From the NCBI RefSeq assembly GCF_022846255.1, contig NZ_AP025682.1: DNA of 64,000 nucleotides, one strand, 5' to 3'. The position numbers and the translations under genes were made by a program. Origin of the DNA: Escherichia coli (GTDB lineage Bacteria > Pseudomonadota > Gammaproteobacteria > Enterobacterales > Enterobacteriaceae). This document shows, piece by piece, positions 8,147 to 57,161 of the stretch (positions are counted from its first letter, which is position 1; each line of letters begins with the position of its first letter). The notes under the pieces are model-generated. The model was given only the letters and a program-made list of their open reading frames with translations. It was not told the DNA's origin and did not search any database.

Positions 8147-8272
<126 letters not shown>

Positions 8273-43836: not shown

Positions 43837-44029
43837 CGTGCAGCTCCTCGTCATGGATCCGAAAACTTCCCCACTGTGAACGAAGGATCGTTGTGCGCTT
43901 TTCGTTCAGCACAACTAAGACTACTCATTTAAAATGCAAAATCAAAAACAATTTCCATTTTAATTAAAAATACATGTTAACTTACTGATAACAATATAAA
44001 TAAAATTTATTCACTTGCTGAGGTGTGTT

Positions 44030-44060
44030 TCGGAAATAAAAAAGGCACCCGAAGGTGCCT
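44030..44060 (-). terminator. Rho-independent terminator downstream of metA
   Basis: On minus strand hairpin aggcaccttcgggtgcct followed by ttttttatttcc; lies just past metA stop (44105). Confidence 0.6.
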
Positions 44061-44104
44061 GAGGTAAAGTGCTGAATCGCTTAACGATCGACTATCACAG
44101 AAGA

Positions 44105-45034
44105 TTAATCCAGCGTTGGATTCATGTGCCGTAGATCGTATGGCGTGATCTGGTAGACGTAATAGTTGAGCCAGTTGGTAAACAGCAAATTACCGTGACT
44201 ACGCCAGCTCGCTCGCGGTTTGTTTTGCGGATCATTGTGCGGGAAATAGTTATACGGTACATCCGGATCCAGTCCGGCTTCCACATCGCGGAAAAATTCC
44301 TGCGCCAGCGTTTGCGCATCATATTCGGGATGGCCCGTCACAAAGGCAATTCGCTTATCTTTGCTGGCAAACAGATATGCATCCCCTTCTTCCGTCTCTG
44401 CCAGAATTTCCAGATCGGTGTAATCACGAATCAACGCTGCCGGAAAGTCAGCATAGCGCGAATGCGGTGCCAGGAATGAATCATCAAAGCCACGCGTCAG
44501 AAGCGCATGAGGATGGAGAATATGATGCTCGTAAACGCCAGAGAGTTTGTCGGTGCGGGTTTGCTTAGGAATGCCGTAGAGGATATTGAGCGCGGCCTGT
44601 ACAGCCCAGCAGACAAACAGCGTCGAGGTAACGTGATCTTTCGACCACTCCAGCACCTGTTTGATCTGCGGCCAGTAAGCGACATCATTAAACTCCACCA
44701 GGCCCAGCGGCGCGCCGGTAACTATCAGACCGTCAAAGTTTTGTTCCTGAATATCTTCAAAGTTACAGTAGAAGTTATTCAGATGCTCTGCGGGCGTGTT
44801 GCGCGATTCACGGGAATCGATGCGCAACAGCTGAATATCGACCTGCAAAGGTGAGTTTGAAAGCAGGCGCAGAAACTGATTTTCAGTTTCGATCTTCTTC
44901 GGCATCAGGTTAAGGATAAGCACCTTTAGCGGACGAATTTCCTGACCAGACGCGCGAGAAGTTGTCATCACAAAGACGTTTTCTTCACGCAAGAAATTGA
45001 CGGCGGGTAGCTCGTCCGGCACACGAATCGGCAT
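44105..45034 (-). CDS. metA: Homoserine O-succinyltransferase MetA, 309 aa
   Basis: Translation [89 protein letters not shown]. Confidence 0.96.
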
Positions 45035-45190
45035 AACCTGATTACCTCACTACATACGCTTATACGTTTAGACATCCAGATAGCTGAAGATAACCAGAAA
45101 ATTTACCAATGTCGAGCCTGCATGTTGAAGGTGAGAAAGTTTCAAGGAAAAGGCTACGTTAGAATATAAGAATGACGAAAAGGAGAGAAA

Positions 45191-45634
45191 ATGGTTATTA
45201 GTATTCGCCGCTCACGGCATGAGGAGGGGGAGGAACTCGTTGCGATTTGGTGTCGTTCTGTCGATGCCACTCACGATTTTTTATCAGCAGAGTATCGGGC
45301 CGAGCTGGAAGAGCTGGTGCATTCCTTTCTGCCGGAAGCACCGTTGTGGGTCGCGGTTAATGAGCGGGATCAGCCGGTTGGGTTTATGTTGTTAAGTGGG
45401 CAGCATATGGATGCGCTGTTTATCGATCCTGATGTGCGCGGCTGCGGCGTGGGCCGGATGCTGGTGAAGCATGCGCTCTCAATGGCCCCGGAACTGACAA
45501 CCAATGTTAATGAGCAAAATGAGCAGGCGGTTGGGTTCTATAAGAAGGTGGGCTTTAAGGTTACGGAACGCTCTGAGGTGGACGATTTGGGGAAACCGTA
45601 TCCGTTGCTGAATCTGGCATATGTGGGGGAATAA
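45191..45634 (+). CDS. yjaB: GNAT-family N-acetyltransferase YjaB, 147 aa
   Basis: GNAT acetyl-CoA binding motif (RGCGVGRMLVKHAL), size 147 aa, position next to metA. Confidence 0.85.
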   Translation: MVISIRRSRHEEGEELVAIWCRSVDATHDFLSAEYRAELEELVHSFLPEAPLWVAVNERDQPVGFMLLSGQHMDALFIDPDVRGCGVGRMLVKHALSMAPELTTNVNEQNEQAVGFYKKVGFKVTERSEVDDLGKPYPLLNLAYVGE

Positions 45635-45679
45635 GCTGCCCCCTATCGTGCTATCGTGCCTGCGTAAGCTGGAGCAGAC

Positions 45680-45744
45680 GCGCCAGCGTCGCAGCCGGCC
45701 TTTTTCTGCACCAGCGCAAAAAGGCCATCCTGACGGATGGCCTT
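45680..45744. terminator. Convergent terminator region between yjaB and rrfE (rrn operon terminator on minus strand; T-run after GC-rich segment on plus strand)
   Basis: Minus-strand hairpin aaggccatccgtcaggatggcctt followed by tttttgcgc, immediately 3' of 5S rRNA; plus strand ccggcc + ttttt after yjaB. Confidence 0.55.
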
Positions 45745-45756
45745 CTGCTTAATTTG

Positions 45757-45876
45757 ATGCCTGGCAGTTCCCTACTCTCGCATGGGGAGACCCCACACTA
45801 CCATCGGCGCTACGGCGTTTCACTTCTGAGTTCGGCATGGGGTCAGGTGGGACCACCGCGCTACGGCCGCCAGGCA
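45757..45876 (-). rRNA. rrfE: 5S ribosomal RNA (rrfE-type)
   Basis: Reverse complement reads TGCCTGGCGGCCGTAGCGCGGTGGTCCCACCTGACCCCATGCCGAACTCAGAAGTGAAACGCCGTAGCGCCGATGGTAGTGTGGGGTCTCCCCATGCGAGAGTAGGGAACTGCCAGGCAT, the E. coli 5S sequence. Confidence 0.96.
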
Positions 45877-45974
45877 AATTCTGTTTTATCAACACGTCTC
45901 GTTATGACCTGTCGATTTAATCTGTATCAGGCTGAAAATCTTCTCTCTATCCGCCAAAACATCTTCGGCGTTGT

Positions 45975-48879
<2,905 letters not shown>

Positions 48880-49072
48880 TCACAACCCGAAGATGTTTCT
48901 TGCGATTCATCATCGTGTTGCGAAAATTTGAGAGACTCACGAACAACTCTCGTTGTTCAGTGTTTCAATTTTCAGCTTGATCCAGATTTTTAAAGAGCAA
49001 ATATCTCAAACATCACCCGAAGATGAGTTTTGAGATATTAAGGCAGGTGACTTTCACTCACAAACCAGCAAG

Positions 49073-49148
49073 TGGCGTCCCCTAGGGGATTCGAACCCCT
49101 GTTACCGCCGTGAAAGGGCGGTGTCCTGGGCCTCTAGACGAAGGGGAC
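49073..49148 (-). tRNA. gltV: tRNA-Glu (UUC) in 16S-23S spacer
   Basis: Reverse complement reads GTCCCCTTCGTCTAGAGGCCCAGGACACCGCCCTTTCACGGCGGTAACAGGGGTTCGAATCCCCTAGGGGACGCCA. Confidence 0.96.
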
Positions 49149-49233
49149 GTATCAGTCTGCTTCGCAAGACGCCTTGCTTTTCACTTTCTATCAGACAATC
49201 TGTGTGAGCACTTCAAAGTACGCTTCTTTAAGG

Positions 49234-50775
<1,542 letters not shown>

Positions 50776-50954
50776 AAAAGTTTGATGCTCATGAATTAAA
50801 CTTCGTAATGAATTACGTGTTCACTCAGAGACTTGGTATTCATTTTTCGTCTTGCGACGTCAAGAATCCGTATCTTCGAGTGCCCACACAGATTGTCTGA
50901 TAAATTGTTAAAGAGCAGTTGCGACGCGGCTTTCAGCTCACTGTCGCGAGGTGG

Positions 50955-50986
50955 CGTATATTACGCTTTCCTCTTTCAGAGTCAAC
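50955..50986 (-). promoter_or_regulatory. rrn P2 promoter
   Basis: Minus strand reads TTGACTctgaaagaggaaagcgTAATATacgcc (-35 TTGACT, -10 TAATAT). Confidence 0.7.
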
Positions 50987-51063
50987 CCTGAATTTCAGGA
51001 TTTTTCTCTTCAACCGAACCGGCTGTTTGTGTGAAGTGATTCACATCCGCCGTGTCGATGGAG

Positions 51064-51096
51064 GCGCATTATAGGGAGTTCTCCGCAGGCCGCAAT
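51064..51096 (-). promoter_or_regulatory. rrn P1 promoter with GC-rich discriminator; AT-rich UP-element-like tract upstream (to about 51125)
   Basis: Minus strand reads TTGCGGcctgcggagaactcccTATAATgcgcctcc preceded by tcatttttctgcaatttttctat. Confidence 0.7.
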
Positions 51097-51266
51097 AGAA
51101 AAATTGCAGAAAAATGACTGACTGCTGCATTCCCCAGCAAAACCCCGCTTTATACCTTTTTACGCACAGAGTTATCCACAATCATCAATGTAATTTCTGT
51201 ATTTTTCCCACGGTAAACACTGTCAAAATTGTGATCACCATTGAAAGAGAAAAATTCGCGAGCGTT

Positions 51267-51282
51267 GCGCAAACGTTTTCGT
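51267..51282 (+). promoter_or_regulatory. PurR operator (PUR box) upstream of purHD
   Basis: gcgcaaacgttttcgt matches PUR box consensus ACGCAAACGTTTTCGT at 15 of 16 positions. Confidence 0.75.
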
Positions 51283-51389
51283 TACAATGCGGGCGAAAAA
51301 TAAGGATGCCCCGTTAGGGGCGTTAGCTGAGTTTTTCGCGAAAAATTCAGCTAACGCTCTCTGTAATAGTCAAATCCAGGGGATTTACC

Positions 51390-52979
51390 ATGCAACAACG
51401 TCGTCCAGTCCGCCGCGCTCTGCTCAGTGTTTCTGACAAAGCCGGTATCGTCGAATTCGCCCAGGCACTTTCCGCACGCGGTGTGGAGCTGCTGTCTACA
51501 GGGGGCACTGCCCGTCTGTTAGCAGAAAAAGGTCTGCCGGTAACCGAAGTTTCCGATTACACCGGTTTCCCGGAGATGATGGATGGACGCGTGAAGACCC
51601 TGCATCCGAAAGTACATGGTGGCATTCTGGGCCGTCGCGGCCAGGACGATACCATTATGGAAGAACATCAGATCCAGCCTATCGATATGGTGGTTGTTAA
51701 CCTGTATCCGTTCGCCCAGACCGTTGCTCGTGAAGGCTGCTCGCTGGAAGATGCGGTTGAGAACATCGATATCGGCGGCCCGACGATGGTGCGCTCTGCC
51801 GCCAAGAACCATAAAGATGTCGCCATCGTGGTGAAGAGCAGCGACTACGACGCCATTATTAAAGAGATGGATGCCAACGAAGGATCGCTGACGCTTGCAA
51901 CCCGTTTCGACCTCGCTATCAAAGCCTTTGAACATACCGCCGCCTACGACAGCATGATTGCCAACTACTTCGGCAGCATGGTCCCAGCCTATCACGGTGA
52001 AAGCAAAGAAGCCGCCGGTCGCTTCCCACGCACGCTGAACCTGAACTTCATTAAGAAGCAGGATATGCGTTACGGCGAGAACAGCCACCAGCAGGCTGCC
52101 TTCTATATAGAAGAGAATGTAAAAGAAGCCTCCGTTGCTACCGCAACCCAGGTTCAGGGTAAAGCCCTCTCTTATAACAACATCGCCGATACCGATGCGG
52201 CGCTGGAGTGCGTGAAAGAGTTCGCCGAGCCGGCATGTGTGATTGTGAAGCACGCCAACCCTTGCGGCGTGGCTATCGGCAATTCCATTCTTGATGCTTA
52301 CGATCGCGCGTACAAAACCGACCCGACCTCCGCGTTCGGCGGCATTATCGCCTTTAACCGCGAGCTGGATGCGGAAACCGCGCAGGCCATCATTTCTCGT
52401 CAGTTCGTCGAAGTGATTATTGCGCCGTCCGCCAGCGAAGAAGCACTGAAAATCACCGCCGCCAAGCAGAACGTACGCGTTCTGACCTGCGGTCAGTGGG
52501 GCGAGCGTGTTCCGGGTCTTGATTTCAAACGAGTTAACGGCGGTCTGCTGGTTCAGGATCGCGATCTGGGCATGGTCGGCGCGGAAGAACTGCGCGTCGT
52601 CACCAAACGTCAGCCGACTGAACAAGAGCTGCGTGATGCGCTGTTCTGCTGGAAAGTGGCGAAGTTCGTGAAATCCAACGCCATCGTCTATGCCAAAAAC
52701 AATATGACCATCGGCATTGGCGCGGGCCAGATGAGCCGCGTGTACTCCGCAAAAATCGCCGGTATTAAAGCCGCCGATGAAGGTCTGGAAGTGAAAGGTT
52801 CCTCAATGGCTTCTGACGCGTTCTTCCCGTTCCGCGACGGTATTGATGCCGCCGCCGCTGCGGGCGTGACCTGCGTAATCCAGCCTGGCGGTTCTATCCG
52901 TGATGACGAAGTGATTGCCGCCGCCGACGAGCACGGTATTGCGATGCTCTTCACCGACATGCGCCACTTCCGCCATTAA
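51390..52979 (+). CDS. purH: Bifunctional AICAR transformylase / IMP cyclohydrolase PurH, 529 aa
   Basis: Translation [87 protein letters not shown]. Confidence 0.96.
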
Positions 52980-52990
52980 TGGAGCGACAG

Positions 52991-54280
52991 ATGAAAGTAT
53001 TAGTGATTGGTAACGGCGGGCGCGAGCACGCGCTGGCCTGGAAAGCGGCACAGTCGCCGCTGGTTGAGACTGTTTTTGTTGCTCCGGGTAACGCAGGCAC
53101 TGCGCTGGAGCCTGCACTGCAAAACGTCGCTATCGGCGTAACCGATATCCCGGCGCTGCTGGATTTCGCACAAAACGAAAAGATCGATCTAACCATCGTC
53201 GGCCCGGAAGCGCCGCTGGTGAAAGGCGTGGTCGATACCTTCCGCGCCGCCGGGCTAAAAATCTTCGGCCCAACCGCAGGCGCCGCGCAACTGGAAGGCT
53301 CGAAAGCGTTTACCAAGGATTTCCTGGCCCGCCATAAGATCCCTACGGCGGAATACCAGAACTTCACCGAGGTCGAACCTGCGCTGGCGTATCTGCGTGA
53401 AAAAGGCGCGCCAATCGTCATTAAAGCGGACGGTCTGGCTGCTGGGAAAGGCGTGATCGTGGCGATGACGCTCGCAGAAGCCGAAGCCGCCGTTCACGAC
53501 ATGCTGGCGGGCAATGCGTTTGGCGATGCGGGCCATCGCATCGTCATCGAAGAATTCCTCGACGGCGAAGAAGCCAGTTTCATCGTGATGGTGGACGGCG
53601 AGCATGTGCTGCCGATGGCCACCAGCCAGGATCACAAACGCGTAGGCGATAAAGATACCGGACCAAACACGGGCGGGATGGGCGCTTACTCCCCTGCGCC
53701 AGTAGTGACCGATGAGGTTCATCAGCGCACGATGGAGCGTATCATCTGGCCAACCGTGAAAGGCATGGCGGCGGAAGGCAACACCTACACTGGTTTTCTC
53801 TACGCGGGCCTGATGATCGACAAACAGGGCAATCCGAAGGTTATTGAATTTAACTGCCGCTTTGGCGATCCGGAAACCCAGCCGATTATGCTGCGCATGA
53901 AGTCCGATCTGGTTGAGCTCTGCCTGGCGGCCTGTGAAGGCAAGCTGGACGAGAAAACGTCCGAGTGGGATGAACGCGCTTCTCTCGGCGTGGTGATGGC
54001 TGCGGGTGGATATCCGGGCGATTACCGCACCGGCGATGTGATCCACGGCCTGCCGCTGGAAGAAGTGGCAGACGGCAAAGTGTTCCACGCGGGCACGAAA
54101 CTAGCGGATGACGAGCAGGTAGTGACCAGCGGCGGGCGCGTACTGTGCGTTACCGCGCTGGGTCATACCGTGGCAGAAGCGCAGAAACGCGCTTATGCCT
54201 TAATGACCGATATCCATTGGGACGACTGCTTCTGCCGGAAAGATATCGGCTGGCGCGCTATCGAACGCGAGCAGAACTAA
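52991..54280 (+). CDS. purD: Phosphoribosylamine-glycine ligase PurD, 429 aa
   Basis: ORF track 52979..54280; start at MKVLVIGNGGREHALAWKAAQSPLVETVFVAPGNAGTA; ATP-grasp fold. Confidence 0.95.
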   Translation: MKVLVIGNGGREHALAWKAAQSPLVETVFVAPGNAGTALEPALQNVAIGVTDIPALLDFAQNEKIDLTIVGPEAPLVKGVVDTFRAAGLKIFGPTAGAAQLEGSKAFTKDFLARHKIPTAEYQNFTEVEPALAYLREKGAPIVIKADGLAAGKGVIVAMTLAEAEAAVHDMLAGNAFGDAGHRIVIEEFLDGEEASFIVMVDGEHVLPMATSQDHKRVGDKDTGPNTGGMGAYSPAPVVTDEVHQRTMERIIWPTVKGMAAEGNTYTGFLYAGLMIDKQGNPKVIEFNCRFGDPETQPIMLRMKSDLVELCLAACEGKLDEKTSEWDERASLGVVMAAGGYPGDYRTGDVIHGLPLEEVADGKVFHAGTKLADDEQVVTSGGRVLCVTALGHTVAEAQKRAYALMTDIHWDDCFCRKDIGWRAIEREQN

Positions 54281-57022: not shown

Positions 57023-57073
57023 TCTTTTATCAGCGCTTACCCTGCGCTGTAACACAAAGGCTTAAGTTTCAAT

Positions 57074-57119
57074 GAGTAAAAATGACTCGCTACCCGCAGC
57101 AGGCGAGTCATTTTTACTC
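57074..57119. promoter_or_regulatory. Perfect 17-bp inverted repeat pair (gagtaaaaatgactcgc N12 gcgagtcatttttactc), candidate ZraR enhancer/UAS between divergent zraP and zraSR
   Basis: Arms at 57074..57090 and 57103..57119 are exact reverse complements; located between the two sigma-54 promoter candidates. Confidence 0.65.
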
Positions 57120-57161
57120 GTTTATCATGCCAGATTACCCGTCATATCAGCGTTTCATCGT

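Follow-up and report, generated by a model that had tools for sequence, protein, structure and literature searches.

The purH-purD (purHD) operon of Escherichia coli lies on the plus strand of the 64,000-nucleotide (nt) stretch of DNA analysed here (contig NZ_AP025682.1, assembly GCF_022846255.1), which we refer to as the window, with the coding sequence of purH at 51390-52979 and that of purD after it at 52979-54280. It is a textbook operon whose control has been described only at the DNA level, by PurR and lately by RbsR and PhoP. A complete rrnE-type rRNA operon diverges from purH on the minus strand (45759-50775, with the 16S gene at 49234-50775). Upstream of purH, the PurR operator (PUR box) GCGCAAACGTTTTCGT occupies 51267-51282 on the plus strand. 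It is kept in related purH leaders, and the same site has been reported for purH-purD in a chromatin immunoprecipitation study of PurR (PMC3159470). Directly 3' of the box stands TACAAT (51283-51288, plus strand), by its position the -10 hexamer of the purHD promoter. Between the PUR box and the purH ATG at 51390 lies the element with which this report is concerned, a 38-nt near-perfect palindrome at 51320-51357, called P2 below, for which the initial annotation had offered three roles: an mRNA stability or translation-control hairpin, a second regulator binding site, or a relic palindromic unit. Its placement in the purH 5' leader was right. The comparisons set out below indicate that the DNA of P2 is likely to be transcribed into a long RNA stem-loop, part of the untranslated purHD leader, and we consider it very probable that the palindrome is a cis element working at the RNA level.

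A window position x corresponds to NC_000913.3 coordinate 4,258,922 - x, which places the palindrome at 4,207,565-4,207,602 on the complement strand, between the end of purH (4,207,532) and the start of rrsE (4,208,147), where that record carries no annotation. In all 76 aligned leaders the -10 hexamer was found as TA[C/A]AAT right after the PUR box, with T1, A2, A4, A5 and T6 invariant. Because of this invariance and the spacing of the hexamer, transcription would start near 51295 (51294-51297, plus strand, about 7 nt past the hexamer), and the palindrome would lie inside a leader of about 95 nt.

Read from the window sequence, the palindrome is GCGTTAGCTGAGTTTTTCGCGAAAAATTCAGCTAACGC. A repeat finder resolved it into two abutting arms of 19 nt each, 51320-51338 and 51339-51357, complementary at 18 of 19 positions (95%); the earlier description, with perfect 11-bp arms and between them a 16-nt core that is itself nearly palindromic, refers to the same object. 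The sole imperfection, G51331 against T51346, becomes a G.U pair in RNA. The chance expectation of such a palindrome was 0 matches in 100 shuffles, and it ranks as the second-longest of the local inverted repeats of the window. Folded as RNA, P2 is predicted to form a stem-loop of 17 pairs on the plus strand, with 51320-51336 pairing to 51341-51357 across a CGCG loop. The 38-mer by itself gave -22.5 kcal/mol, and the region 51290-51400 gave -39.9 kcal/mol with a z-score of -4.4. The small adjoining hairpin ccccgttagggg that had been pointed out is also present, at 51309-51320.

To look for selection on this structure we compared the purH loci of 80 species genomes, three Pectobacteriaceae genomes and 53 metagenomic contigs, the last chosen for the common PUR box and -10 sequence. 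They yielded 109 distinct modules made up of P2 and the small hairpin before it (P1), from Enterobacteriaceae, Erwiniaceae, Pectobacteriaceae and metagenomic relatives. When 76 distinct leaders were aligned with MAFFT, 97% of the P2 cells were paired and double changes were seen at 9 of 16 pairs; none of 500 shuffles reached these values, and controls in which the pairing was slid gave 29-55% paired. Across the 109 modules 91.4% of cells were paired (33-46% in the slid controls), and 11 of the 17 pairs, 118 cells in all, had changed on both sides, a cell count that does not represent independent evolutionary events, several of the changes marking whole clades. In 36 sequences one G-C pair is replaced by C-G, and in 22 another pair, U-A, by G-C. 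These modules contained 123 G.U or U.G cells against 18 of A.C or C.A. Since on duplex or cruciform DNA each G.T is an A.C on the other strand, this excess of G.U over A.C points to sense-strand RNA and not DNA as the object of selection. The apex of P2 varies from 3 to about 55 nt across relatives, E. coli having a 4-nt loop, and 108 of the 109 P2 regions fold as a single unbranched hairpin of 15-32 pairs. The inserted apices are more self-complementary than their own shuffles (mean z = -2.4). Because the spacing of the arms varies while the inserts stay self-complementary, a dimeric DNA-binding site is disfavoured.

The arms of P2 appear to be constrained in sequence as well as in pairing. 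Over 74 species, their identity to E. coli was 95% and 93%, close to the 97% of the -10 hexamer, with 42% for the apex and 60% for the four-fold degenerate sites of purH. Mismatches also recur, with C.C or C.U at one helix position in 52 of the 109 modules and a second position mismatched in 34. Within E. coli, 4888 complete genomes agree at 99-100% identity over the 401 nt around the palindrome. BLAST, which at this database size detects only near-identical copies of at least about 19 nt, placed each half of the module once per genome in 5419 of 5426 complete genomes; the two places per genome given by an 88-nt query arise from the palindrome being matched on its reverse strand as well. A P1-P2 covariance model scored the E. 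coli leader at 72.9 bits on the plus strand and 31.9 bits on the minus strand, and found nothing else above 11 bits in the window. On 433 kb of related DNA it gave exactly one sense match per locus, always the purH leader. We interpret P2 as a selected sense-strand RNA structure that is single-copy, purH-specific and conserved in Enterobacteriaceae, Erwiniaceae and Pectobacteriaceae. Conservation and covariation among relatives, which had been proposed as a test that could refute the palindrome's importance, thus came out in favour of RNA, with compensatory changes across the three families.

Seven purH leaders gave no match to the covariance model. Four of them (L097, L115, L121 and L123) keep the PUR box and the -10 hexamer and have a leader of 81-82 nt with the short, A/U-flanked hairpin AAAAGCG-AUGA-CGCUUUU and then AUCUUU. 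The leader of L090, in which the PUR box and -10 hexamer are also present, carries CCGCA...UGCGG and then UUUUAUCC. The remaining two, L085 and L119, likewise with PUR box and -10 hexamer, have a diverged hairpin (GUUUCUGAA...UUCAGAAC in L119). At the other extreme of length, the leader of Entomohabitans teleogrylli (L039, 265-476) is 212 nt long and retains P1-P2, including a U-A to G-C double change in P2, with about 100 nt inserted between P2 and the Shine-Dalgarno sequence.

P2 does not stand by itself in the leader, which is ordered as a 5' tail, P1, P2 and an invariant CUCU tract. The A-rich tail (51295-51307, plus strand) ends in AAGGAU and is single-stranded by folding prediction, 51295-51303 being unpaired with a probability of 0.98-1.0, and its GGAU pairs in silico only with a long-range partner. 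Its sequence is variable among genera (58-66% identity), GGA(U/C) occurring in about 90 of 130 leaders. P1 (51308-51321, plus strand) is the GC hairpin GCCCC-GUUA-GGGGC. Its loop is GUUA, GUAA, GAAA, GCGA or UUUU in E. coli and relatives, its stem shows double changes from C-G to A-U, C-G to U-A and G-C to A-U, and in Dickeya and Pectobacterium the stem is wholly different in sequence with the pairing kept; by this comparison P1 also appears to be a real hairpin. Because one or two nucleotides are common to P1 and the base of P2, the two helices should stack end to end. The CU tract UCUCUG (51358-51363, plus strand) follows directly 3' of P2. CGCUCU is nearly invariant here (C75, T76 and C77 are invariant in alignment A1; 95% identity to E. 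coli), and the tract can lengthen P2 by G.U, G-C and G.U pairs with 51317-51319. Further downstream, a weak hairpin, P3 (AAAUCC-AGG-GGAUUU, 51372-51386, plus strand), contains the Shine-Dalgarno sequence AGGGGA at 51378-51383. It has a pair probability of about 0.55 and is found only in the E. coli group, a Klebsiella A-to-U change sitting in its loop; Buttiauxella- and Erwinia-type leaders are without P3 and have a linker that is different yet equally conserved.

We propose that P2 would act in cis once transcription has begun, adding a second level of control below repression by PurR. The P1-P2 module would start about 13 nt from the 5' end, and P2 would end 32 nt upstream of the start codon. 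The stacked helices would most likely set the lifetime of purHD mRNA and/or the access of ribosomes to the nearby binding site. It would be a constitutive structural element and not a ligand-sensing switch; a riboswitch is unlikely because the loops and junctions are the least conserved parts. Both arms are far more conserved than pairing requires, and it is therefore probable that a trans-acting factor also recognises the lower stem and the CUCU flank. The first suspect would be a factor specific for double strands, RNase III for example, to which a helix of about 20 bp would be roughly suited in size. As a whole, the proposal that the P1-P2 leader RNA governs the fate of purHD mRNA after initiation is the one towards which we lean, on balance. 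That the function of P2 is in stability or translation we put forward tentatively, as a real possibility; the binding of a specific factor to the leader element is rather doubtful. The earlier idea of an mRNA stability or translation hairpin is borne out as regards the hairpin, to the extent that sequence comparison allows, through the conserved helix, the compensatory changes and the sense-strand G.U bias; stability and translation are its candidate functions.

Parallels exist among known leaders. The purH hairpin presumably resembles those of pnp and rnc, RNase III sites which set mRNA lifetime: like them it is a long, largely perfect stem-loop in a 5' untranslated region (UTR), conserved in enteric bacteria and not a terminator, and unlike them it has no reported RNase III cleavage. 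With the stabilisers of the ompA type it shares a stable 5'-proximal structure and a comparatively long-lived mRNA, but about 13 unpaired nucleotides precede P1 if the start has been placed correctly, and the sequence of the stem is conserved far beyond the need of a generic stabiliser. Hairpins of this protective kind sit within a few nucleotides of the 5' end.

Several points weigh against our proposal. That usual rule for a 5'-terminal protective hairpin does not hold here because of the unpaired 5' tail of about 13 nt, and the insert of about 100 nt in Entomohabitans disfavours a strictly distance-dependent effect on translation. In thermodynamic modelling the Shine-Dalgarno sequence was paired to a similar extent with or without P1-P2, which argues against a simple translational clamp. 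The existence of Enterobacterales leaders without the module indicates that it is not essential for purH expression. The longer life of purH mRNA comes from one data set (Potts 2017, Supplementary Data 2), in which its half-life in the wild type is 10.0 min and those of purK, purN and purM are 5.6-6.5 min. The lists of RNase III sites of Gordon 2017 include none at the palindrome, purH perhaps being too weakly expressed; their sole site between purH and rrsE, 4207874, maps to about 51048, in the rrnE leader. The transcription start was deduced from the spacing of the -10 hexamer and not from start-site mapping, and data on it were not found in the supplements of Kim 2012 and Ettwiller 2016. 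Finally, no experiment on the purH hairpin was found in the accessible literature.

Two other explanations also operate on RNA. P2 and the U/C-rich tract could form a weak, possibly factor-dependent intrinsic terminator or a pause hairpin, capping read-through into purHD or timing the coupling of transcription and translation. The stem has the 17-20 bp, the GCG/CGC base and the stability (-22.5 kcal/mol) expected of a terminator hairpin, and the pyrimidine tract follows its GC-rich base immediately. This tract is richer in U in Buttiauxella, Pantoea and Serratia-like types (5-6 U in 8 against 4 in 8 in E. coli), and the module-less lineages L097, L115, L121, L123 and L090 carry a short hairpin and a U-run at the same place. 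We nevertheless regard attenuation as unlikely. The tail in E. coli, UCUCUGUA, has 4 U in 8, below the criterion of at least 5; the absence of a T-run, already remarked upon in the initial annotation, is confirmed at the DNA level (TCTCTGTA, 4 T in 8), and the hairpin was not among the plus-strand terminators that a scan reported. Moreover, what is conserved in the tail is cytosine, a base that would not be retained if termination were under selection. No purH 3' end was present among the entries listed in the E. coli Term-seq supplements (eLife 62438), where short RNAs may be unstable. A conserved antiterminator pairing was not found either, the candidate 51293-51300 / 51332-51339 being specific to E. 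coli, absent from other genera and partly upstream of the presumed start. Attenuators of the pyrBI type share with purH a hairpin with a GC base and a pyrimidine-rich tract in the leader of a nucleotide-biosynthesis operon, but purH differs in its poor U-tract with conserved C and in having no conserved leader peptide or antiterminator. As a second explanation, the lower stem, the recurrent mismatch and the CGCUCU flank could be the binding site of a protein feeding back on purHD, for which the candidates are RNase III, with the hairpin as its substrate for processing, Nus factors, which in some lineages could bind a BoxA-like CGCUCUU(U)A, and PurH moonlighting as an RNA binder. The conservation of the arms beyond the needs of pairing and the persistence of mismatches in 52 and 34 of the 109 modules would fit such an operator. 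Proteins and ligands usually read RNA at loops and junctions, which are the least conserved parts of this module. In 25 of 122 module-bearing leaders we found CGCUCUUA, which we take to be the 8-mer of the lambda nut BoxA, and in 8 of 122 the core GYUCUUUA; the resemblance is partial and limited to Erwiniaceae and Pectobacteriaceae. For BoxA the consensus is GYTCTTTAANA, with C4T/T6C as a boxA-null double mutant (PMC5725501), and the E. coli sequence GCTCTCTGTAA departs from it at three positions, position 6 included. A BoxA or nut site in E. coli was rejected on this ground: its leader has no match at up to one mismatch, and the rrnE BoxA pair, in the rRNA leader (50906-50916) and the 16S-23S spacer (48988-48998), matches perfectly. 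The purH gene is also absent from published lists of BoxA targets. Like the rrn and lambda nut sites (boxB and BoxA, bound by NusB-NusE), the purH leader has in P1 a small GC hairpin with a GNRA-type loop, and Erwiniaceae and Pectobacteriaceae have CGCUCUUA or GYUCUUUA after the hairpins; unlike them, the E. coli tract GCUCUCUG departs at critical positions, and half of the motif is paired in P2. RNase III accommodates about 22 bp and favours 5' UTRs (PMC6212723), and the helix, with 17 pairs or 20 with the G.U/G-C/G.U extension, has the required size of about two turns of double-stranded RNA. PurH was recovered in an RNA-interactome screen of E. coli, in a preprint that names no RNA partner for it (bioRxiv 10.64898/2026.07.23.740326). 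For CsrA, the GGA motifs of the leader are AAGGAU (51302-51307) and the Shine-Dalgarno sequence, and a CsrA bridge between the two was rejected, there being no reported peak on purH from crosslinking and immunoprecipitation (CLIP) and the gene being entered as 'No' for CLIP-seq, co-purification, prediction and crosslinking (Potts 2017, Supplementary Data 2). Overall we think an operator quite unlikely. Its most elaborate form, in which P1-P2-CUCU is the RNA operator of a dedicated purHD feedback loop in Enterobacterales read by a trans-acting factor, is improbable; this factor could be PurH, a complex of the Nus type taken over from the adjacent rrnE operon, or a protein that carries a metabolite and signals the status of 5-aminoimidazole-4-carboxamide ribonucleotide (AICAR), its triphosphate form ZTP, or folate.

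The remaining two explanations place the palindrome in DNA. It could be a regulator site, or a cruciform responding to negative supercoiling from the divergent rrnE promoters. In favour of this, purHD has regulators at the DNA level besides PurR, namely the repressor RbsR and the activator PhoP (PMC10912719, PMC10100675), and the centre of the palindrome is AT-rich and lies about 270 nt from the inferred P1 region of rrnE. However, this centre is not conserved (42% identity), the distance between the arms differs by a factor of more than ten with self-complementarity preserved in the inserted DNA, and the bias of G.U over A.C is inexplicable on duplex or cruciform DNA. Nor is there a PurR or PhoP box on the palindrome at up to three mismatches. 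The only match in the window to ACGCAAACGTTTGCGT at that threshold is the PUR box at 51267-51282, which excludes a second one at the palindrome. The PhoP box (T/G)GTTTA-N5-(T/G)GTTTA has no match at up to three mismatches in 51300-51360; the nearest similar sequences, two overlapping ones with three mismatches each, are at 51203-51230 on the minus strand, upstream of the purH promoter, and matches of this quality are common throughout the window. In addition, the centre TTTCGCGAAA, T-rich on the left and A-rich on the right, reverses the polarity of LacI-family sites, the PUR box being A-rich on the left with a central CG. With the variable arm distance, the self-complementary apex and no PurR-, PhoP- or BoxA-type match, the second regulator site suggested earlier is disfavoured, and we hold any role as a DNA element to be very improbable. 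Least credible of all is a relic of a mobile or repeated palindromic unit without present function, similar to repetitive extragenic palindromes (REP) and bacterial interspersed mosaic elements (BIME) or to miniature inverted-repeat transposable elements. The palindromic shape fits, and the apical inserts of some lineages could reflect insertion events; an imperfect palindromic unit of about 35-40 bp outside coding sequence is also what REP/BIME elements offer. Unlike these, the purH palindrome is single-copy (5419 E. coli genomes), lies in a 5' leader and not between convergent or co-directional genes, and keeps an orthologous position in three families. No further copy was found in 497 kb scanned with the covariance model. 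Its arms, conserved like the -10 hexamer and far above four-fold sites, and its compensatory substitutions are likewise at odds with a relic, and that part of the initial annotation is rejected. A REP-like palindrome does exist in the window, at 8219-8253 (GCGTCGCATCAGGCA / TGCCGGATGCGACGC); the single-copy purH palindrome does not resemble it.

We return to the proposal of a cis-acting leader RNA to consider its novelty. At the gathering threshold, Rfam 15 returned only rRNA, tRNA and StyR-44 in 44000-54000, the StyR-44 match being in the rRNA operon at 48887-48995. Relaxing the threshold to E <= 10 over 51200-51450 gave only chance matches, to mir-725 (23.8 bits against a threshold of 76) and snR67. 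RefSeq has no annotation at the palindrome, and in a full-text search of the accessible literature its sequence was not printed in any paper. P2 is thus undescribed in Rfam, RefSeq and the accessible literature, although the sequence papers of 1989-1990 may have noted the dyad symmetry. It would be a candidate 'purH leader' motif for annotation of the Rfam type.

Across three families the leader RNA structure is as tightly conserved as the promoter. This would imply that the final two steps of inosine monophosphate synthesis, and likewise the clearance of AICAR, are subject to a post-transcriptional constraint not described before. In many other phyla the position upstream of purH is occupied by the ZTP (pfl) riboswitch, RF01750, which to our knowledge Enterobacterales lack at purH. 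Since that riboswitch is found at the same position elsewhere, enteric bacteria may have another device for the same task. Both are structured RNAs of the purH leader that add control after transcription initiation; the purH module differs in having no pseudoknotted two-domain architecture, in its variable loops and in showing no sign of a ligand pocket. RF01750, with its two sub-domains and pseudoknot, was also considered as the identity of the module and rejected, being unlisted even at E <= 10 in 51200-51450. The alarmone ZTP was first described in Salmonella. Should the feedback operator, improbable as we judge it, prove real, it would add a second, RNA-level layer to the pur regulon and possibly the missing ZTP sensor.

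Other pairings and products of the leader were considered and discarded. Anti-Shine-Dalgarno pairing between UCUCUG and CAGGGG has a probability below 0.01, and the A-to-U change seen in Klebsiella is better accounted for by the loop of P3. Pairing of CCCC in the 5' arm of P1 with GGGG of the Shine-Dalgarno sequence, proposed by RNAalifold, falls in invariant columns without covariation and has a probability of 0.015. When 36 coding nucleotides were added to the leader, RNAfold paired GGAUG (51304-51308) with CGUCC (51402-51406) and CGUU (51312-51315) with AACG (51397-51400). This long-range pairing of 51304-51315 with 51397-51406 encloses the ribosome-binding site and displaces P1. All leaders were picked by a pattern containing CGTCC, which makes CGUCC invariant in the sample and covariation uninformative on the pairing of 51402-51406. 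A leader peptide from the AUG at 51306 would have 3 codons in E. coli and 6 in Salmonella, and leaders of the Buttiauxella and Pantoea types have no such AUG. The 49-amino-acid (aa) open reading frame at 51287 was dismissed as a leader peptide, as it begins upstream of the expected transcription start. Read on the minus strand, P1 (51308-51321) and the ATCCTTATTT after it score like a terminator. Klebsiella and other genera have not kept the T-run, and the score is probably fortuitous. Mimicry of 16S rRNA was also rejected: the 9-mer AGCUAACGC from the 3' arm of P2 recurs at 49908-49916 (minus strand), with a match count at the level of chance.

A few further observations were made in passing. 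The 16S copy of AGCUAACGC falls inside a self-complementary segment, CUAACGCGUUAAG. The only local inverted repeat of the window that exceeds the purH palindrome in length is at 57071-57122, with 20-nt arms (AATGAGTAAAAATGACTCGC / GCGAGTCATTTTTACTCGTT) that are 95% complementary around a 12-nt spacer. Lastly, four PurH protein entries of 542 aa (P0003, P0005, P0006 and P0009) have an N-terminal extension of 13 residues relative to the 529-aa protein, and three of 597-598 aa (P0008, P0011 and P0012) have one of about 69 residues. Since these extensions would be translated from the structured leader, the entries are probably miscalls of the start codon, and the structure of the purH leader cautions gene callers against N-terminally extended PurH models that reach into it.

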